From Candidatus Dormiibacterota bacterium (GTDB taxonomy: Bacteria > Chloroflexota > Dormibacteria > Aeolococcales > Aeolococcaceae), in assembly GCA_035995545.1 (NCBI GenBank), contig DASYKI010000001.1, positions 902 through 64,901 of the forward strand: DNA of 64,000 bases. Reading direction: 5' to 3'. Each line of letters starts with the position of its first letter. Positions within the stretch are counted from its first letter, which is position 1. The position numbers were made by a program, and so were the translations under genes. Under the pieces are notes generated by a model. That model had not been told where the DNA came from. It ran no database searches and was given only the letters and a program-made list of their open reading frames with translations. This document shows positions 13,878-24,333 of the stretch, one piece after another.

Positions 13878-16800
13878 TCAGGTGTCATGCACCTTGCCGA
13901 GGACTTCTACCAGCTCGGCGATGACCTGAACGTCGGCTGCAGATGAGTCCGTGAGGACGATCGGCGCGAATTCGGGGTTGGCCGGTCTCAACGTGATCCG
14001 CTCGTGCCGCCACGAGTCGCCCTTCGCTGCCTTGTCGCTGTCGTAGCGCTTGACGGTGTAGCGCTGGCCGGTCTCGGGGTCAGCGGTGTCGCGCAACTGC
14101 ACGAGGACGGTCTTGCCTTGGCGCGAACCTTCGACGGGCGCGCGGAACAGGCAATACGCGCCATCTGGGATGACGGGCTCCATGGACTGGCCGATGACCT
14201 GGGTGACGAACATGCCAGGACGGAGGCGGTGACGCAGCGGGACCTCGACCCATTCGTAGCCGTCGTCCTCGATGTGCTGCGGATCGCCGAAGGCACCAGC
14301 CGCAGCCTTGAGCGGGACGAGCGGCACGCAGCTCGCATAACGATCTTCCGGACGGCAATCGACAACTCGCAATCCCGGCGGCATGGGGTACTCGGTGGCC
14401 GGCGACTCCGTTCCCGGTGGGGCGTCTCTGAGCCGTTGGTATGCCTCAGACGCCATCCATCCGCTCACGACCTCGCGGAAGGATGCGTCGTTCATGTATC
14501 GGACGAACAGCTCCTCATTCTGGTCCATGCGTTCGACGAAGAGTCGCTGCAGTAGGTTCTTGAACACCAGCTCGAACTTGTCTTCGGGGTTGACGGCGGC
14601 AGCTTGGCGCAGTCCATCGTCGATGACGGCGGCCTCGACGATCTGGTCGAAGAAGAGCTGGTCCGCCTGATTGAAGTCCGTGCCGAAGCGGTCGTTGACC
14701 AGATCAATGAGCTGCGACAGAGGAACGGCCTCCACGCGCCCCACTCCAGACCCGACTTCCTTGGGTCCGTCCAGCGCAGCTGCTGTGCCGTCCTGAAGCG
14801 AGATCGAGCCCTCGCTGATCTTCTGCAGGCGATAGTACTCCAGCCTCACTTCGTCGTCGAACTGATACGCAAGGCCTCCTCGCCGCCGCGGCAGCTTCGT
14901 CGTCAGATGACGCAGGAACACATAGAGCCGTTCGAGGTCCGAGTCCTGATACGGGATAATCTGACTCAGAAAAGCGTACAGGTTGCGGAACGCTTGCACT
15001 TTGGCCCGCCACGGCTCGGCCTCCTCCCGTTCGCGCTGAAGCAGAGCAAATCGCGATACTGCTGGATCCAGCGCAGCATTCATCGCCTGATGGTCCTGCG
15101 CGCTCTGGCGCTGCCTCGGCTTGAAGTACACCGCGCAGAACTGTTCGACCTCTTCGTCAAGGTAGATGCCTGAGGCGTCCAACTCACCCTTGATCGCGTA
15201 CATACGCGCGGGGTCGACCCCCTCTCCCATCTCCGCGCCTTCGTAGTAGACTTTGAAGGCCTCACGGATCTCGTCTCGGTCGTTCACGAAGTCGAGCACG
15301 AACGTATCTTCCTTGAGCGGGTGCGTGCGGTTCAGCCGCGACAGCGTCTGCACTGCCTGGATACCCGCGAGGCGCTTGTTCACGTACATCGTGTGCAGTA
15401 ACGGCTGGTCGAAGCCGGTCTGATATTTCTCGGCAACCAGGAGGACCTGAAACTCCTGCGTCGCGTACTTCTCCGGAAGCTCCTTCTCGCGTATGCCGAG
15501 GTTCATCCTCTCTTCGGTGTACTCCACGTCCGGGAGTCTGTCGTCCAGAACCGTCCCCGAGAAGGCGACAAGCGTCTTGATCGCGTAGCCCTTCCTCTTG
15601 ATGTACAAGTCAAAGCTCTGCTTGAAGCGCACCGCCTCCAGCCGCGAGCCCGTCACCACCATGGCCTTGGCGCGACCGCCGATCTTGTGGCGCGTGACCG
15701 ATTGGAAGTGCTCGACCATCACCTCGGTCTTCTGCGCAATGTTGTGTGGATGCAGGCGCAGGAAGCGCGCGAGTCCGCGCGCCGCTTCTTTCCGCTCGAC
15801 GTTGGGGTCGTCCTCGCACGCCTTGAGCAGCCTGTAGTAGGTGACATATGTCGAATAGTTCTTCAGCACGTCGAGGATGAACCCTTCCTCGATCGCCTGG
15901 CGCATGGTGTAGCGATGGATCGGCTCGCCCGCACGCCCGAATACGGCGAAGGTCTTGTGCTTCGGCGTCGCGGTGAAGGCGAAGAAGCTCAGATTCGCCT
16001 GTCGTCCGCGCTTGGCCATGCTGCGGAACAGCGCTTGGAGATCTTCGCGCCCCTCTTCGGCGGCGCGCTGGCGCGCTTCTTCCTGCATGCCCTCGCCGCC
16101 GAGGACCTCCTTGAGATCGGTCGCGGTCTCCCCGCCCTGCGAGCTGTGCGCTTCGTCGATGATCACCGCACAGCGTCTCGTCGGCAGCCTGCCAGTCCCC
16201 TGTTCGCCGCGTTCCTCGGCCAGCTTCAGCAACTGGCGCGACACGAAGGGGAACTTCTGGAGTGTCGTGATGATGATGGGAACGGCGCTCTCCAGCGCTT
16301 CTGCGAGCTGCCGGGATCGTTCGTCGATCTGCTGCACCACGCCACGCTTGTGCTCGAATTGGTAGATCGTGTCCTGGAGCTGCTGGTCGAGCACAACGCG
16401 GTCGGTCACCACGATCACGCTGTCGAAGACGCGCTGGTTGCCGGCATCATGCACCGAGGCCAAGCGGTGCGCCAGCCAGCCTATGGTGTTGCTCTTGCCG
16501 CTGCCCGCCGAGTGCTCGACGAGATAGTTGTGCCCGATGCCCTCGGCGCGCGCCGCGCCTACCAGCCGGCGCACGGCGTCAAGCTGGTGGTAGCGCGGGA
16601 AGATCATCGATTCGACCTTCACCTTGCGGCCCTGGTCGTCACGTTTCTCGTCGACTTGCAGGTGCAGGAAGCGCGCGAGGATGTCGAGCAGGCTGTCACG
16701 CTGCAGGGCCTCTTCCCAGAGGTACGCTGTCCGGTAGGCGCGCCCGGCGGGATCGGGCGGGTTACCGGCGCCGCCTCCGCATCCCTTGTCGAAGGGCAGG

Positions 16801-17432
16801 AAGTGCGTTGCGTTCCCGGCCAGCCGAGTGGTCATACGCACCGCCTCGGTGTCCGCGGCAAAGTGCACCAGGGTCCGCCGCTTGAACTCGAAGATCGGTT
16901 CGCGTGGATCACGGTCATGCCGGTACTGCCACAATGCGTCATCCACGGTCTGCCCACTGAGGGGATTCTTCAGCTCCACCGTGGCGATGGGGACGCCGTT
17001 CAGACTCAGCGTCACATCGATGGACTTCTCGGAGCGCGGCGAGAAGTGGAGCTGGCGGGTGAGTCCCAGCCGGTTGGCGGCGTAGCGTGCTTCGAGTTCT
17101 GGATTCAGCTCGTGAGCGGCTTTGAAGTACGCCACACGAAGCGGCCGGCCGTAGCACTTGAAGCCATGGCGTAACGTGGCTAGCGATCCGTGCACGTCCA
17201 TCCACTTGCACAGGTCGCCGATGACCTGCTCGCCTGTCTGGGCGCCGTGGAGCAACTCCAGCTTCGCCCACTGCTCCGGCTGGGTCTCGCGGATGAAGTC
17301 GAGGACGGCCTCCGGAAAGATCGCGCGCTCACGGTCGAAGCCGTCGCGGTTCAGCGTGACGTAGCCGTGCGCGAGCAGAGAGGTCTCGATGACGGTTTCG
17401 AAAGCGCTTTCCCAATGCCGGCTATCGCTCAC
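13878..17432 (-). CDS. hsdR: Type I restriction endonuclease R subunit (HsdR) with C-terminal LexA-like S24 peptidase domain
   Basis: An N-terminal PD-(D/E)xK nuclease ([21 protein letters not shown]) is followed by helicase motifs (GSGKSNT, DEAHSS, TATPKH). The C-terminal roughly 160 aa, [16 protein letters not shown]...[22 protein letters not shown]...GKTVLVQL...RYTVKRY...[15 protein letters not shown], is an S24/LexA-CTD fold. The start is taken as the GTG at 17432, giving a GTGA overlap with the ptuB stop; an alternative ATG lies at 17465. Confidence 0.85.
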
Positions 17433-18079
17433 GGGGCCATCCTCGCCAATCGCCTTTCCAACCACCAGACCGCAACCTGGCAGAACGGTTCAAGGCTGCC
17501 AACCCCATCGCTGCGCCGAGTACGCTCGCGCTCGAAGGTGCTCCGCGGGACCGCGTCACCGATCCTGTCCTTCTCGCGACGCCACCAAGCAAGAACAGCG
17601 TCCATGACACCCTTCCGATTGTTCTTGAGGATCGGAAGGTTGAGATTCAGAACGTCGCAAAGCTCGGCGTCGAACGCCGCATCGTCGGAGCGGATGCTCC
17701 CGTCCGCCTCATAGCGCAGTCGGGTTTCGATGTGGTGGGCTGGATCCGCCGGGTTCCAGAGGAGATCGGCATCCGCCTTGCGCGTGTCGCAGTGCTGGAG
17801 GCGCGACGGCTTTCCGTCGCCGCCCAGGCACGCACCGAGAAGATTGCGATATTCAAGCTGCTCAGCAGGGTATCGACCCTGACAGCGCCAATGCTCGATC
17901 TTCATCGTCGCCGGCCCATCGCTGATCCGCCCCGTGCAGTAGCAGCAGAGTCCCCGCTGCTCGGTCACCAGCGCGTGGCGCAGCGCGTCCTTGTCGGGGT
18001 AGTTGGCGTAGTCGCAGTGAGGCCTCTGCCGATGCGCTGTGAGGGTCGCGGGCGCGGCGCCCTTGGTGATTGCTCTCAT
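17429..18079 (-). CDS. ptuB: Septu PtuB-like HNH endonuclease (TIGR02646-like)
   Basis: The protein starts MRAITKG. The HNH motif reads [40 protein letters not shown]. There is an ATGA overlap with the upstream ATPase. The N-terminal extension of ORF 17429..18634 was rejected. Confidence 0.7.
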
Positions 18080-19329
18080 TCCTTCCCCTCCACGAAATCG
18101 AGGAGGGTACGAACCCGAGTGACCTCGGGATCGTCGTCTCCGAGCCGCTCGACGAGCTGTGTCAGAAGCGCGTGGCCGCGGGTGAACTCCTGTTGGCCGA
18201 TGCTCTTCGCAAGCTGCAACAGTAGATCCTGCACGTCTGTGGCGCGCGGGTCCGTGTCCATCACCTCTTCGAGCACCCGGCTCGAATCGACGCCGTAGGA
18301 ATGGGTCGGCGAGTATACCTCGCCGTTCGCAATGATCTGGATTCGATCGTGCTCGACCTGGCCGATGACCTGCGGCGAATGCGTCGTGGCGATGAACTGG
18401 CACCGCGGAAAGGCCGCCCGCAGGTTGCCGACGATCTGCCGCTGCCAGCTGGGGTGCAGGTGCAGGTCGATTTCGTCGATGAGCACCACCGCGCCGGCCT
18501 CGGCCGCTGGGTCCGCAAGAGCGGGATTGGCCTGGGCGAGCCGCCGGGTCAGGTCCAGCACCAGCGCCAGGGTCCCGCGCTCTCCGTCGGAGAGCTGCCG
18601 GACCGGAATCCCCGTGCCACCCCGGCTGATCCATAGTTGCCGGCCATCCTCGCCGCCCAGCCGTAAGCTGCTGTAGCCCGGCAGAAAGCGTGCAACCGCA
18701 TCCTCGAAGGCAGTCAACACGCGCAGGCCCTGCGGACGTTCCTTGCCGAGCACATGTTGCACGCGCATCCAGGCAGCGAATTCACCGAGGCGCAGCTCCC
18801 GATCGGCGAAGGCGTCGCCGAAGGCCGCCGCGACCTCTCCCGCCGCAACTCCCTTGGCCGGCGCCCGCTCCGACGGCATGGCACGGTTGGTCGAAAACAG
18901 CATGGCCAGCGGGCGGCCGCCAAGTTCCGTCCCGGATACGGGCGACGGCGGGTCGCCGAGGAACTCCGCCCTCTGCGGCGTGCTGTGGACCTGCTCGCGG
19001 GGCAGTCCCGCTTTGCTCTGCTGAGGCGAGCTGGTTTCAAGCGGCTTGTGCATGAGATAGGTGTGGTCGCCCTCTCCGATCCGGAGATCACATTCAAGTG
19101 TCAGCGCCTCGGCGCCAACGCGGATGTCGTCGCGAGTGAATGTCTCGAGCCGGCCGTGGAGCTTGTTCGTTTGGTTCGTCACTGCCGAGAGGCACACCCC
19201 GAGCGCGTCAAGCACGCTCGTCTTGCCAACTCCATTGATACCGACGATGAGGTTGAAACCCGGCTGGAAGCGGAACTCTGCGGTATCGATTGCGCGCAGG
19301 TTGGCGAGCCTGAGACGCGTGACCATCAT
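18076..19329 (-). CDS. ptuA: Septu PtuA-like ABC/SMC-type AAA15 ATPase
   Basis: Walker A GINGVGKTS, Walker B/D-loop VVLIDEIDLHLHP, H-loop IATTHSP and the signature LSDGERGTLALVLDL. There is an ATGA overlap with hsdS. Confidence 0.7.
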   Translation of the reverse strand: MMVTRLRLANLRAIDTAEFRFQPGFNLIVGINGVGKTSVLDALGVCLSAVTNQTNKLHGRLETFTRDDIRVGAEALTLECDLRIGEGDHTYLMHKPLETSSPQQSKAGLPREQVHSTPQRAEFLGDPPSPVSGTELGGRPLAMLFSTNRAMPSERAPAKGVAAGEVAAAFGDAFADRELRLGEFAAWMRVQHVLGKERPQGLRVLTAFEDAVARFLPGYSSLRLGGEDGRQLWISRGGTGIPVRQLSDGERGTLALVLDLTRRLAQANPALADPAAEAGAVVLIDEIDLHLHPSWQRQIVGNLRAAFPRCQFIATTHSPQVIGQVEHDRIQIIANGEVYSPTHSYGVDSSRVLEEVMDTDPRATDVQDLLLQLAKSIGQQEFTRGHALLTQLVERLGDDDPEVTRVRTLLDFVEGKE

Positions 19330-20612
19330 GCCGCACTCTCCACGTCGATCCCGCCGGTCACGGCGGCGGCAATGAGGGCGGCACGGCGTTCCTTAAGGAG
19401 AGCAATGGTGCGTTCGGTTGATGCGCTGAGGCGATCCAGCTTCGCCGCCGCTGAACCAACATGTTCGATGATTCGGGACTGATCCTCCATCGGCGGCAAC
19501 GGCACCTGAATCGCACGGAAGCCCTCCCAGTACAGGCGAAGTCGGTCCCAAACGATCCCGTGCGAGTGCCTCGCGCACTCTGCACTAAATGCTTGTGTGC
19601 GGAACAACAGACCCGCGTATGCCGAGTTCAACGAGCCAGTCGGCTCTGCAACGACATAGTCGGGGCTCACCAAGCCGTCTGCCGGCGTTACACCCACCGC
19701 ACCCTGCCACATGCGCATCTTGTTGAAAGCAATGTCTCCCCGCTTCGCCACCTTGTAGGTGTTGAAATCGGCCGCCGTGCTCTCGATCCGGTCATCTGAG
19801 AATTCTCGGAGTGCGACGCCGGCGTTGATGGATACCTCAAGCAGCGGGAGATCGGCCTCGCCGCGTTGGTCCCGCTCGCGAAAGAGCCACGCGATTCTTC
19901 GGACCGCCCAATGCGCCGGAATCGCCCCGAGCCACGGGATGCCGGAGTCTCGGAGGGGGGCGTTGGGATCGAGGCCCCGGATGACGGCGCGGGTGATGAG
20001 CGCCCGGCGCTTCTCGGCCAGCAGAACGAGCACCCGCTCCTTCGCCGCCACCAGCGCGTCCAGCCGCGCCGTCTCGAGGTCGAGGTAGTCGGCGATGGCG
20101 CGCTGCATGTGAAACGGCGGCACCGGCAAAGTCGCCGCGCCAATGTCGGCCTTCGGTATTCCGAAGCGTGTGACACCGTTTGCTGCAAGCTCCAACTGGA
20201 CCCGCACAGGCTTCGCCTGAAGGCATCGGAATAGGAACGCCCCGTACACTCGGTCCGTGCGCGGCCGCAGCAACGCAAGGTGATAGCCGCAGACCAAGTC
20301 GTCGGCTGTCTCCCTCACGAGTGCAGGGACGCCAATATCATCCCAGGCTTCCGAATCCTTCGTGATGAGCACATCGCCGAGTGCAAGTCGGAACTTCTCT
20401 ATCTCAGCCTTTGTCGCCGTCGCCTGCATGAACTCGAGCCCAAGCATGATGAACTCGTGGTTGTAGACGTCAGTGTAGTTGCAGAGTCGGACAGGGACTT
20501 CATCATCGGCAGGGATCTTGTCGACGTTACTCACCACGTAGTCAGCAGTTGCTCGGAGCGGTTTCGCAGACCACCCCTCCGGAAGAGAATTGACCCACGC
20601 AAGGTGCGTCAC
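19326..20612 (-). CDS. hsdS: Type I R-M specificity subunit HsdS (two target-recognition domains)
   Basis: Methylase_S architecture, with conserved central and C-terminal repeats (LPLLKERRAALI..., LAEKRRALITRAV). There is a GTGA overlap with hsdM. Confidence 0.85.
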   Translation of the reverse strand: MTHLAWVNSLPEGWSAKPLRATADYVVSNVDKIPADDEVPVRLCNYTDVYNHEFIMLGLEFMQATATKAEIEKFRLALGDVLITKDSEAWDDIGVPALVRETADDLVCGYHLALLRPRTDRVYGAFLFRCLQAKPVRVQLELAANGVTRFGIPKADIGAATLPVPPFHMQRAIADYLDLETARLDALVAAKERVLVLLAEKRRALITRAVIRGLDPNAPLRDSGIPWLGAIPAHWAVRRIAWLFRERDQRGEADLPLLEVSINAGVALREFSDDRIESTAADFNTYKVAKRGDIAFNKMRMWQGAVGVTPADGLVSPDYVVAEPTGSLNSAYAGLLFRTQAFSAECARHSHGIVWDRLRLYWEGFRAIQVPLPPMEDQSRIIEHVGSAAAKLDRLSASTERTIALLKERRAALIAAAVTGGIDVESAA

Positions 20613-22594
20613 TCCGTCACCTCCCGCAGCAGCCGCATGATCTCGTCCTCCGCCTTCTTCAAGTCCGCGTCGATCTCCTCCAGCGGCCGTGGAGGCGTGT
20701 ACTTGTAGAAGTGGCGGTTGAAGTTGATCTCGTAGCCCACCTTGTCCTTGCTCCGGTCTATCCAGGCGTCGGGAACGTGGGGGCGCACCTCGCGCTCGAA
20801 GTAGGCGTCGATGTCCTCTTCGAGCGGCACCTTCTCGACGTCGCGCAGGTCGGCGTCGGGCTCGTAACCGCGGTCACGCCCTGCCTTGAGTACTGGCTCG
20901 GCTTCGGGATCTCTCTGCGTGAAGACGTCGCGGAACCGCTTCTCTTCGGTAGCCTTCCATCTCGACTTGCGCTCGTGCAGCAGGCTCGTGATGCCTGCCC
21001 AGGCCGCATTCCAGTCGCGCAGGTGTTCGCGGCCCAACGCCCTGTCGATGGCCTGCACGTCATCGAGGAGCTCCGGGAAGGCGTCAAGGAAGCGTGCCTT
21101 GTCGTCGGTCGTCATCCGATAGCTGAGGCGCAGCGGGCGCTCGACGGTGACACGCGTATAGCCAAAGTCGGCGTTGTCGAAGATCTTCGAACGCCCGTCG
21201 TCCTCAAAACGCCCGTAGAGGCGCACGATCTCCCCTATCTGGCTGCTTGCGATATGGCGTCGCTTGTCGCCGAGGCTGCGCTTGCTCTCCTCACTGCCGC
21301 CGGCGGTCCAGAACTCGCGGGCGTCGAGGAGCTGGATCCTGCCCTCGCGCTGCTTCTCCTTGCGATTGGTGAGGATCCAGACGTAGGTGCCGATGCCGGT
21401 GTTGTAGAACATCTGCTCGGGCAGGGCGACGATCGCTTCGAGCCAGTCGTTCTCGATGATCCATCTGCGGATCTCGGTCTCGCCCGAACCGGCGCCGCCG
21501 GTGAACAGCGGCGAGCCCGAGAAGACGATGGCCAGGCGCGAGCCATGCTTGCGCTCAGCCGGCTGCACCGGCTCAAACTTGTCGATCATGTGCTGCAGGA
21601 AGAGGAGTGAGCCGTCGTTGACGCGCGGTAGCCCGGCGCCGAAGCGGCCTTCGAAGCCCCGCTTGTTGTGCTCGCGGTGGATATCCCTCTGTTGTCTCTT
21701 CCAGTCCACCCCGAAGGGCGGATTGGTCAGGAAGTAGTCGTAGGTCTCGCCTTGGAACTGATCGTCCGTGAAGCTGTCGCCGAAGCGAATGTTGTCGTTG
21801 CCACCGTTGTGATCCACCTGCTTCATCAGCATGTCCGAGGCCGCGGTGGCGAAAGCGCGCTTGTTGTAATCCTGCCCGTAGACGTAGAGCTTCGCCTCAC
21901 CGTGATGGTCCCGCAGGTAGTTCTGGGCCTCGGCCAGCATGCCACCGGTGCCGCAGGCGGGGTCGAGGAGCTTGCGGACAGTGCCCGGGGTGGCGAGCAA
22001 CTTGTCGTCCTGGATGAAGAGGATGCTGACCATCAGCCGGATGACCTCGCGCGGCGTGAAGTGATCTCCCGCGGTCTCGTTGGCCAGCTCGTTGAAACGG
22101 CGGATGAGGTTCTCGAAGATGAGGCCCATCTGCTCGTTGGGCACTCGGTCGGGGTGCAGATCGACGTCGCAGAACTTGGAGACGACGAGATAGAGGATGT
22201 TGGACTCGCGCATCTTCTCGATCTCGTTCTCGAACTCGAAGAAGTCGAAGATGCGCCGCACGTTGGCCGAGAAGGACTTGGTGTAGGTGACGAGGTGCTG
22301 GGCGATGTCATCGGGATCGCCCTTGAGCTTCTCGAAGTCGAGCTCTGAGTGGTTGTGGAAGCGCTGGCCCGCGGCCCTGTTCAGACGGGCGTCCAGGGCG
22401 TCACCCCGGAACTTGTGCTTCGAGCGCTCGTGCTCGGCCAAGACCTTGGCCTTGGTGGGGGCGAGCACGCAGTCGAAACGCCGCAGCACTGTCATGGGCA
22501 GCATCACGCGCTCGTACTGCGGCGGGCGGTAGGGCCCACGCAGTAGGTCAGCGATCTGCCAGATGAGGTTGGTGAAGTAGTTGTGGTCAGGCAT
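20609..22594 (-). CDS. hsdM: Type I R-M N6-adenine DNA methyltransferase HsdM
   Basis: The HsdM_N signature MPDHNYFTNLIWQIADLLRGPYRPPQYERVMLPMTVLRRFDCVL, motif I LDPACGTGGML and motif IV NPPFGVDW. The start is the ATG at 22594; 166 upstream codons of ORF 20609..23092 were rejected. Confidence 0.9.
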   Translation of the reverse strand: MPDHNYFTNLIWQIADLLRGPYRPPQYERVMLPMTVLRRFDCVLAPTKAKVLAEHERSKHKFRGDALDARLNRAAGQRFHNHSELDFEKLKGDPDDIAQHLVTYTKSFSANVRRIFDFFEFENEIEKMRESNILYLVVSKFCDVDLHPDRVPNEQMGLIFENLIRRFNELANETAGDHFTPREVIRLMVSILFIQDDKLLATPGTVRKLLDPACGTGGMLAEAQNYLRDHHGEAKLYVYGQDYNKRAFATAASDMLMKQVDHNGGNDNIRFGDSFTDDQFQGETYDYFLTNPPFGVDWKRQQRDIHREHNKRGFEGRFGAGLPRVNDGSLLFLQHMIDKFEPVQPAERKHGSRLAIVFSGSPLFTGGAGSGETEIRRWIIENDWLEAIVALPEQMFYNTGIGTYVWILTNRKEKQREGRIQLLDAREFWTAGGSEESKRSLGDKRRHIASSQIGEIVRLYGRFEDDGRSKIFDNADFGYTRVTVERPLRLSYRMTTDDKARFLDAFPELLDDVQAIDRALGREHLRDWNAAWAGITSLLHERKSRWKATEEKRFRDVFTQRDPEAEPVLKAGRDRGYEPDADLRDVEKVPLEEDIDAYFEREVRPHVPDAWIDRSKDKVGYEINFNRHFYKYTPPRPLEEIDADLKKAEDEIMRLLREVTE

Positions 22595-22786
22595 CGCGCC
22601 AGTGGGCCTCAGCGAAGGAGTCAGTTGGCGGACCATTCTGCTGTACCCAGGACAGGACGGGAACCGCGGGTTGCCGCGGGCCATGCTGATGAGGCGCGCC
22701 TGGAAGCTCGGGGCTGAGCCCCCACGCTCGACTTGCCTCGCCCTATGCAGTGGCTGGACGACGTAGGTTAGTCCAACTAGACTACC

Positions 22787-23032
22787 TTGATCATGACCCA
22801 GGTCAACATCCACGATGCCAAGACGCACCTGTCCCGCCTGCTCGAACGGGTTGAGGCCGGGGAGGAAGTCGTCATCAGCCGCGCCGGGCGACCGATCGCG
22901 CGGCTGGTGGCCTATCACGCGCTCGTGGAGCCGCGTCGCCCCGGGGCCTGGAAGGGTCGTGTCCGCGTCGCACCGGACTTCGACGACCTTCCGACCGAGA
23001 TCGAGCGTGCTTTTCGCGGCGACGACGCATGA
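22787..23032 (+). CDS. Phd/YefM-family antitoxin
   Basis: MIMTQVNIHDAKTHLSRLLERVEAGEEVVISRAGRPIARLV is typical of Phd/YefM. There is an AT-rich promoter directly upstream. Confidence 0.8.
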   Translation: MIMTQVNIHDAKTHLSRLLERVEAGEEVVISRAGRPIARLVAYHALVEPRRPGAWKGRVRVAPDFDDLPTEIERAFRGDDA

Positions 23033-23406
23033 CGCTGCTGCTCGACACGCATGCGCTCCTATGGTGGTTGACCGACGATCAAACGCTGACAAGCTCGGCG
23101 CGGAAGGCCATCGAGGATCCCAGGTCGACCGTCTACGTCAGCGCCGTCACCGCGTGGGAGATCGGCATCAAACGGGCTATCGGCAAACTCGTTGCGCCCG
23201 ACGACCTCGAAGACCAACTGAGAGATGGCGGCCTGACGGAAGTGCCAGTGACGGTCGCAGATGCCATCGCCGCTGCGACGCTTCCACGGCATCACGACGT
23301 TCCTTTCGACAGGATGCTGGTCGCGCAGGCGCAGCGTCGCGGATTGACAGTGGTGACCCGCGATCGCTGGATCGGTCAATACGACGTGCCAGTCCTCGCC
23401 GCATAG
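23029..23406 (+). CDS. vapC: PIN-domain toxin (VapC family)
   Basis: LLDTHALLWWLTDD...YVSAVTAWEIGIKRAIGKL...TRD is a PIN fold. There is a 4-nt overlap with phd. Confidence 0.85.
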   Translation: MTLLLDTHALLWWLTDDQTLTSSARKAIEDPRSTVYVSAVTAWEIGIKRAIGKLVAPDDLEDQLRDGGLTEVPVTVADAIAAATLPRHHDVPFDRMLVAQAQRRGLTVVTRDRWIGQYDVPVLAA

Positions 23407-24256: not shown

Positions 24257-24333
24257 TGGCTGGGGAGAGAGGATTCGAACCTCTGATTGGCTGATCCAGA
24301 GTCAGCTGCCTTACCACTTGGCCACTCCCCAGC
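24257..24333 (-). tRNA. tRNA-Gln (anticodon CTG), CCA encoded
   Basis: The reverse complement folds as a cloverleaf. The acceptor stem is GCUGGGG/CCCCAGC. The anticodon stem-loop is GCUGA-CUCUGGA-UCAGC with anticodon CUG. The T-arm is AGAGG-UUCGAAU-CCUCU. Confidence 0.85.

Follow-up and report, generated by a model that had tools for sequence, protein, structure and literature searches.

When the two genes of one defence system are found inside the operon of another, are they a second defence that is simply transferred and expressed together with its carrier, or have they become functionally coupled to it? The question is raised by a locus in a 64,000-nt stretch of a metagenome-assembled genome of a Candidatus Dormiibacterota bacterium (phylum Chloroflexota; assembly GCA_035995545.1, contig DASYKI010000001.1, positions 902 to 64,901; hereafter the window), where a predicted Septu pair, ptuA and ptuB, separates hsdS from hsdR in a Type I restriction-modification (R-M) operon. 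A preliminary description of the same sequence had reported these five genes and had held a complete Septu module in this position to be undescribed. We conclude that the observation is correct, but that the locus is a further case of an already described class, a defence system embedded in another. The hsdS-hsdR gap of this R-M family is a near-obligatory cargo slot, about two thirds of which carry a dedicated Septu lineage, and the PtuAB lineage occupying the slot in the window is found almost only there. On balance, the locus is probably a compact five-gene operon in which PtuAB would form an autonomous second layer behind Type I restriction.

Identity and layout of the five genes

On the evidence of its sequence, the pair of ATPase and HNH nuclease is Septu PtuA and PtuB. 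The ATPase matches the PADLOC PtuA model PDLC00271 at 1.8e-110 (residues 1-415 of 421 aligned), and its top match in the PDB is the Septu protein PtuA 8ee4 (6.4e-36), with OLD reaching only 1.6e-4 and AriA near 1e-4. Among the other PADLOC models, AriA scored 1.1e-23, and GajA and Old fell outside the top 25. Identification of the ATPase with OLD, Gabija or PARIS was rejected, as the PtuA score is stronger than theirs by tens of orders of magnitude. In a 21-sequence alignment of homologues, the Walker A motif (G30-x-N-G-V-G-K36-T37), the signature (L246-S247-D-G-E), Walker B (D285-E286) and the H-loop histidine (H317) are invariant. The HNH protein matches the PADLOC PtuB model PDLC00322 at 3.3e-69 (aligned over 1-214 of 215), passes the cut-off of TIGR02646 (58.7 bits vs 52.15), and matches the PtuB chains 9l7p and 8ee7 of the PDB. 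Its residues K6, C45-x2-C48, E62-H63 and N79 are conserved in the homologues, the EH pair and the asparagine being invariant. The preliminary description had named better scores to OLD-family or Gabija proteins as the finding that would overturn its Septu assignment; the searches with hidden Markov models (PtuA, PtuB and TIGR02646) gave full-length matches, and neither OLD nor Gabija scored better.

Experimental work provides a reference for these residues. Septu functions alone in Escherichia coli and requires its Walker A, Walker B and HNH residues (PMC13096335; bioRxiv 10.1101/2022.08.21.504612). In E. coli PtuB, H75 and N91 are essential, and their spacing of 16 residues equals that of H63 and N79 in the window protein (PMC13096335). 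Counterparts of the essential Septu residues are all present in PtuA (K36 and D285/E286) and in PtuB (H63 and N79) of the window, and the catalytic residues of both proteins are kept across phyla at 27-82% identity. Retron I-A, which also contains such a pair, was considered and rejected: no reverse transcriptase reading frame was found in or beside the operon, an Rfam scan returned a tRNA only, and the scores to the retron equivalog models stayed below their cut-offs (222 vs 500 for NF041760 and 92 vs 150 for NF041761).

The flanking genes encode a Type I R-M system. HsdM contains the Pfam domains HsdM_N (6.3e-25) and N6_Mtase (2.3e-52), matches the PADLOC model MTase_I PDLC03029 at 3.9e-262 (residues 4-660 of 661), and shows the DPACGTGG and NPPFG motifs in its translation. 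HsdS matches Specificity_I PDLC03105 at 3.7e-80 (residues 3-425) and Pfam Methylase_S at 6e-6 (27 bits vs a cut-off of 22). HsdR contains HSDR_N, SWI2_SNF2, ResIII and T1R_D3-like Pfam domains, matches PADLOC REase_I at 6.6e-34, and has D...ELK and DEAH motifs. Since HsdM (TIGR00497, 73 vs a cut-off of 243) and HsdR (TIGR00348, 4.4e-55, 187 bits vs 284.55) both remain under the NCBIfam equivalog cut-offs, the system belongs to a distinct, divergent R-M subfamily. The catalytic motifs are intact in all five proteins of the operon.

The identities of the genes, their order, their minus-strand orientation and the four 4-nt overlaps given in the preliminary description are all confirmed by the open reading frames (ORFs) and by reading the individual bases (Table 1). 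Shine-Dalgarno-like purine runs (GGGAGG, GGAGAG, GGAGGGG and GAGGA) precede the starts at the overlaps and lie within the respective upstream genes. The choice of start codons was examined for each gene with more than one candidate. A 401-aa ORF for ptuB (from 18634) was rejected, as the PADLOC alignment covers the 216-aa form and the homologues share an MRxIxKG N-terminus, and an 827-aa ORF for hsdM was ruled out by the ends of the profile and homologue alignments. For hsdR, the upstream GTG is the less likely start, and the GTG within the overlap is preferred because the homologues begin at an NTGA overlap. The ptuA gene opens with ATGATG (window 19324-19329, minus strand); the database protein (P0001, 416 aa) begins at the second ATG, which corresponds to a 1-nt overlap (TGATG). 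The homologues have 417 aa and the consensus MIVTRL, and for this reason we prefer the first ATG, which gives the 4-nt overlap.

Table 1. Features of the embedded Septu operon and its junctions (window coordinates)
Feature	Position	Strand	Remarks
hsdM (Type I R-M methyltransferase)	20609-22594	-	661 aa
hsdS (specificity subunit)	19326-20612	-	428 aa; start GTG
ptuA (predicted Septu ABC/SMC-type ATPase)	18076-19329	-	417 aa
ptuB (predicted Septu HNH nuclease)	17429-18079	-	216 aa
hsdR (restriction subunit)	13878-17432	-	1184 aa from GTG 17432; alternative GTG 17465 gives 1195 aa
LexA/UmuD-like S24 peptidase module, C-terminus of HsdR	13881-14342	-	Pfam Peptidase_S24
GTGA start/stop overlap, hsdM/hsdS	20609-20612	-	bases read directly
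ATGA start/stop overlap, hsdS/ptuA	19326-19329	-	bases read directly
ATGA start/stop overlap, ptuA/ptuB	18076-18079	-	bases read directly; ptuA immediately upstream of ptuB
GTGA start/stop overlap, ptuB/hsdR	17429-17432	-	bases read directly
Non-coding gap upstream of hsdM (192 nt)	22595-22786	-	divergent from Phd/YefM gene at 22787

Recurrence of the layout and the cargo slot

To place the locus among its relatives, we compared the genomic contexts of PtuA and HsdM homologues. The database search with PtuA gave 5,569 matches with E <= 1e-10, and among the 120 matches listed the homologues are 69-82% identical to the window protein. A PtuA-seeded scan was then made of one genome per species, in which the genes of the best 80 loci were annotated by tblastn. 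Among these, all 29 loci whose PtuA is at least ~34% identical carry it directly behind hsdM-hsdS of the same family (HsdM 53-86% and HsdR 63-88% identical to the window proteins), and 27 of the 29 also show hsdR of this family downstream. The two exceptions are a contig that ends within ptuA (L012) and a locus without hsdR within 10 kb (L014). The hosts of these operons are diverse, including Gamma- and Alphaproteobacteria, Acidobacteriota, Spirochaetia, Cyanobacteria, Chloroflexota, Bacteroidota, Verrucomicrobiota and Planctomycetota. In a single related case (L021, 56% identical), PtuA is truncated at the N-terminus and its surroundings contain no hsd genes, and the ~50 more distant matches among the best 80 are stand-alone ptuAB pairs. 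Loci in which tblastn did not detect PtuB encode a divergent HNH partner.

The same five-gene order is carried by a conjugative plasmid of the cultured Ketogulonicigenium vulgare, where the RefSeq annotation reads methyltransferase, S subunit, "AAA family ATPase", "retron system putative HNH endonuclease" and type I restriction endonuclease (NC_017386.1, 55966-64147). Geothrix rubra Red803 is another cultured carrier. No close relatives of PtuA were found in phage records, and only distant relatives of the R-M family were found in E. coli, with hsdM-hsdS-hsdR free of cargo. The comparison of hsdS-hsdR content in relatives, which the preliminary description had proposed, thus finds the five-gene order in about 29 genome loci, in 36 metagenome loci (see below) and on the plasmid.

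The junctions of the relatives are equally compact in many cases. All four junctions are 4-nt overlaps in the five-gene operon of L003 and likewise in L005-L008, L016, L018, L019 and L024. In ~30 loci of different phyla, such overlaps make up the majority of the junctions. In low-GC cyanobacterial loci, gaps of 0-7 nt often take their place. Because the overlaps are conserved across loci they exceed chance, and compaction is common, not universal. An NTGA at the predicted start of hsdR also follows some non-Septu cargo (L089, L126 and L138), so that Septu may not be alone in being packed tightly.

The content of the slot was examined separately in a scan of metagenomes seeded with HsdM (best 80 loci, HsdM 66-87% identical), where 57 loci could be evaluated. 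PtuA directly follows hsdS in 36 of the 57, other cargo precedes hsdR in 17, neither PtuA nor hsdR appears before the contig end in three, and only one has an empty slot with hsdS abutting hsdR. The non-Septu cargo includes PDC-M31A/B, HEC-01A, an AriA-like ATPase, a Peptidase_M78 and DUF4411 pair, and RhuM/PDC-S05, and the matches to the PDC and HEC models reach E-values down to 1e-177. These models originate in a published survey that covered genes embedded within R-M, BREX, DISARM and Hma systems, so the slot has already been mined. The variety of its cargo argues for interchangeable, self-contained modules.

Several loci illustrate how such cargo accumulates. In L001, the five-gene operon additionally contains a pAgo (Piwi) and DpnII/MboI-like pair and an M78 and DUF4411 pair, i.e. 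three cargo modules stacked in one hsdS-hsdR gap. Just upstream of ptuA, between the pAgo pair and ptuAB, there is a scar (L001:8568-8992, also L002:4180-4604) in which a piece of hsdR (codons 4-121, 68-76% identity) is joined to a piece of hsdS (codons 400-425, 92%). This scar shows that two cassettes were joined by recombination within conserved flanks. The pair of Peptidase_M78 (ImmA/IrrE-like, ~381-397 aa) and DUF4411 (~162-176 aa) proteins recurs immediately 5' of hsdR, either alone or alongside Septu (L001:10892-12570, L106:13286-14925, L138, L142 and L163); the M78 protein has only weak PADLOC matches (RmrA, CapP), and the DUF4411 protein has none. Between ptuB and hsdR, one locus has an unannotated 412-aa ORF that by eye resembles a transposase (L028:11949-13187) and another a small ORF and a 139-aa ORF that by eye resemble a PIN toxin-antitoxin pair (L032:12200-12867). 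Integrases and transposases adjoin the cassette in L001 and L003. In L005 (5736-11140), hsdM-hsdS-ptuA-ptuB is kept and hsdR is reduced to an 81-codon remnant; together with L014, this locus shows that the methylase and Septu part persists without the restriction subunit.

The preliminary description's view that the arrangement had not been described did not hold, given that embedding in Type I R-M operons has been published and the exact layout is widespread in public genomes. Our literature search met with no text in which Septu is named as the content of an hsdS-hsdR gap, or in which a dedicated R-M-linked Septu clade is described, although the figures of the embedding survey may include it. 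In the accessible parts of that preprint, Septu is named zero times in the supplements and in the main text only within Hma.

A LexA-like module on HsdR and the flanks of the operon

A further feature of the carrier, missed in the preliminary description, is a C-terminal module of HsdR that matches Pfam Peptidase_S24 (PF00717; 2e-7, 31.1 bits vs a cut-off of 23.3). In a BLASTP comparison of the module with E. coli LexA, the E-value was 1e-6 and the AAAG and GQSM regions were aligned. The module contains a cleavage-site-like AAAG, which aligns to the LexA VAAG, the serine motif GQSMEP, and the lysine motif RYTVKRY/TVKR; GQSMEP and TVKR were set against the LexA motifs by eye, and the motifs are conserved in ~23 homologues. 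The module thus has the Ser-Lys dyad and, upstream of its catalytic core, a putative Ala-Gly cleavage site. A sequence search of the PDB with the module gave nothing at E < 0.01.

Of the 37 loci whose contig includes the C-terminus of HsdR, 16 have the fusion, irrespective of their cargo. In the window ORF the frame is open throughout. The NCBI annotation of the source genome has here a separate 168-aa "S24 family peptidase" (P0121, window 13878-14384, minus strand), which is 100% identical to the last 168 codons of hsdR, starting from an internal ATG (MPPGLRVV...). Because no stop codon separates this part from the HsdR core, the deposited gene model represents hsdR as split or shortened; in L001 the JGI annotation calls a fused HsdR-S24 protein of 1187 aa. 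Among the many short S24 matches, the one that was checked (L169) is cut off by an insertion sequence, with an IS21-type IstB gene adjoining the truncated hsdR-S24 fragment.

By analogy with LexA, the module may be a self-cleavage switch for restriction that responds to RecA filaments. Our literature search found no published description of an HsdR-S24 fusion. It could point to a protease-based alleviation or activation of restriction, distinct from the ClpXP route of restriction alleviation in EcoKI (PMC4231737).

Upstream of the operon, a Phd/YefM antitoxin and PIN toxin pair (22787-23406, plus strand) is divergent from hsdM, and on the K. vulgare plasmid the gene immediately upstream of hsdM is likewise of the Phd/YefM family. 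A tRNA-Gln(CTG) gene is located 1.7 kb upstream of hsdM (24257-24331, minus strand). When the surroundings of the operon and of this tRNA gene were searched for att-like direct repeats, short chance matches alone turned up, and no integrase is nearby.

Autonomy or coupling, and comparison with known systems

In the reading that we favour, a single mRNA would begin in the 192-nt gap 5' of hsdM, presumably the only non-coding room for an operon promoter. Ribosomes would pass from gene to gene through the overlapping stop and start codons, so that HsdM and HsdS would be made first and HsdR last. The M2S complex would methylate the sites of the host and R2M2S would cut unmodified incoming DNA, while PtuA and PtuB would assemble into a separate ATPase-nuclease complex. 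An infection that persists despite restriction would then be met by PtuAB, which would cleave its nucleic-acid target and stop phage production. Embedding would ensure that Septu is transferred and expressed together with the R-M genes; direct cross-talk between the two systems would be possible and is not required. It is reasonable to expect from the overlaps, as the preliminary description did, that the stoichiometry of the two systems may be linked and that disruption of ptuAB may be polar on restriction.

The history of the genes bears on how close this association has been. Mantel tests on the pairwise distance matrices of 23 loci gave r = 0.77 for PtuA against HsdR, 0.85 for PtuA against HsdM and 0.905 for HsdM against HsdR (p = 0.0005 in each case). 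The mean identities of 44% for PtuA, 68% for HsdM and 73% for HsdR indicate that PtuA evolves about twice as fast. A neighbour-joining tree places the 58 embedded PtuAs, including the plasmid copy and those of the L109 type with a second PtuB subtype, apart from the 46 stand-alone ones. One old capture of Septu followed by co-diversification would be the simplest reading, though not a proven one.

Some of our observations weigh against an autonomous second layer on a single transcript. Near-exclusive embedding and co-divergence are explained by functional integration no less well than by autonomy. The Mantel correlations can be inflated by the shared history of whole cassettes, and the bootstrap value for a single embedded PtuA clade is 111/200. 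Furthermore, the consensus scan found one sigma-70-like promoter inside the operon (1.2 in shuffled sequence) and none in the 192-nt gap, but this consensus may not be that of the host phylum; it also gave six terminators inside the operon (6.4 in shuffled sequence). The promoter and terminator scan is a weak negative and uninformative for Dormibacteraeota.

Functional integration could take the form known from PrrC. By physical association, the HsdMSR complex would hold PtuAB inactive until a phage-encoded anti-restriction protein (Ocr, ArdA or Stp-like) disabled the R-M enzyme and so released PtuAB as a back-up. The embedded PtuA clade is hardly ever outside this R-M family (29 loci vs the one truncated orphan among the best 80), and it co-diverges with HsdM and HsdR as one clade. 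PrrC is also an ABC-ATPase-coupled nuclease, and according to the embedding survey it is nearly exclusive to Type I R-M (bioRxiv 10.1101/2024.01.29.577857). Moreover, tRNA cleavage, the activity of PrrC, is also known from at least one Septu (PMC13096335), and retrons demonstrate that PtuAB can be sequestered by a partner system (PMC12819146). We nevertheless regard such a guard as rather doubtful, given that many unrelated modules occupy the same slot in close R-M operons, which suggests generic docking, that L005 and L014 retain hsdMS-ptuAB without an intact hsdR, and that PtuA of the window has no added domain (417 aa vs 465 to ~550 aa in stand-alone and retron PtuA). In its widest form, which we consider unlikely, PtuAB would form the integral fifth and sixth components of a composite machine ("Type I R-M plus Septu") found in at least ten phyla, silenced by HsdMS(R) and fired when anti-restriction blocks restriction, with about 40% of the machines equipped with a RecA-filament-sensitive S24 switch on HsdR. 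If this were true, PtuAB would be a two-protein analogue of PrrC/EcoprrI, and DNA damage or phage replication intermediates would alter HsdR by self-cleavage.

The position of ptuAB immediately before hsdR, with predicted translational coupling through the overlap, could also mean that the pair acts on the ends or nicks produced by HsdR translocation and cutting and so hastens the destruction of restricted DNA. Degradation of nicked or phage DNA has been reported for the Septu of E. coli ATCC25922 (cited in PMC11555353). Related Type I enzymes work without such a partner, for instance the cargo-free E. coli relatives, and the slot also carries the non-nuclease cargo RhuM and M78 with DUF4411, and we find an accessory nuclease quite improbable. 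The idea that Septu is a selfish passenger, which alone gains from the linkage and contributes little in the host, where it may be decaying, has in its favour that the cassette is mobile, being found on a conjugative plasmid and beside integrases and transposases, and that the GC content of the operon (0.60-0.65) is slightly below that of its flanks (0.66-0.72). The benefit of linkage through embedding has been discussed by Payne et al. Both ORFs are intact, however, and their catalytic residues are kept across phyla in a way that indicates purifying selection; a passenger of this kind seems very hard to credit.

An autonomous second layer behind restriction remains the account that we prefer. 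As a single locus the operon is ordinary. The comparative pattern, with a dedicated, co-diverging Septu lineage and overlaps on both sides, is moderately interesting, and the cassette offers a clean natural test bed for deciding whether embedded systems are merely co-transferred or functionally coupled to the carrier like PrrC.

Among known systems, the closest in protein content are the stand-alone type I Septu systems (Doron 2018; 8ee4/8ee7; Ec-B88, PMC13096335), which likewise have an ABC-type ATPase followed by a TIGR02646 HNH protein with the same motifs. The PtuA of the window differs from theirs in its separate clade, its shorter length and its location, which is a Type I R-M operon. 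Targets vary among the characterised Septu systems (PMC11555353, PMC13096335); one system cleaves tRNA-Tyr (PMC13096335), and that of E. coli ATCC25922 is the reported DNA degrader mentioned above. In Retron I-A (Ec78/Eco7) PtuAB is also recruited to a larger system, retron Ec78 co-opting and sequestering the pair (PMC12819146), and the NCBIfam models of this retron match the window proteins partially; it differs in having a reverse transcriptase and an msr/msd RNA, neither of which was found at the window operon.

As regards the embedding itself, the survey already mentioned reports that Type I R-M, BREX and DISARM often contain embedded genes, of which 96.7% have the orientation of the carrier, and that Septu is commonly embedded in Hma (bioRxiv 10.1101/2024.01.29.577857). 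The window Septu corresponds to this class, its genes lying between those of the R-M carrier on the same strand. Septu within Hma (Payne 2021, PMC8565338; bioRxiv 10.1101/2024.01.29.577857) similarly stands between methylase- or helicase-type defence genes on one strand, but the carrier is Hma instead of Type I R-M, and no dedicated co-diverging clade is named in the accessible text.

Two precedents concern the same gap. In enteropathogenic E. coli (EPEC), DarTG2 occupies the gap separating hsdS from hsdR within an island regulated by RptR, and the site was called a probable hotspot (PMC12255303). It shares the slot and the orientation with the window Septu and is expressed as one island; it differs in that the cargo is a toxin-antitoxin system and that a small repressor gene lies upstream, whereas none is seen in the 192-nt gap of the window. 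In Campylobacter jejuni, rloA and rloB occupy the region between hsdR and hsdS of Type I loci (PMC2928727) and are likewise two slightly overlapping genes, but they belong to other protein families and to another R-M family. RloB is of the RloB/AbiL type, not HNH.

The precedent that the preliminary description had invoked, PrrC nested in hsd operons, is supported by the embedding survey (bioRxiv 10.1101/2024.01.29.577857). Like the window Septu, PrrC/EcoprrI is an ABC-ATPase-linked nuclease nested almost exclusively in hsd operons, which implies a second line of defence. It is, unlike PtuAB, a single protein with an anticodon-nuclease domain, is located between hsdM and hsdS, and has only the ABC fold in common with the Septu pair. 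Masking of the nuclease by its R-M enzyme has been demonstrated for PrrC.

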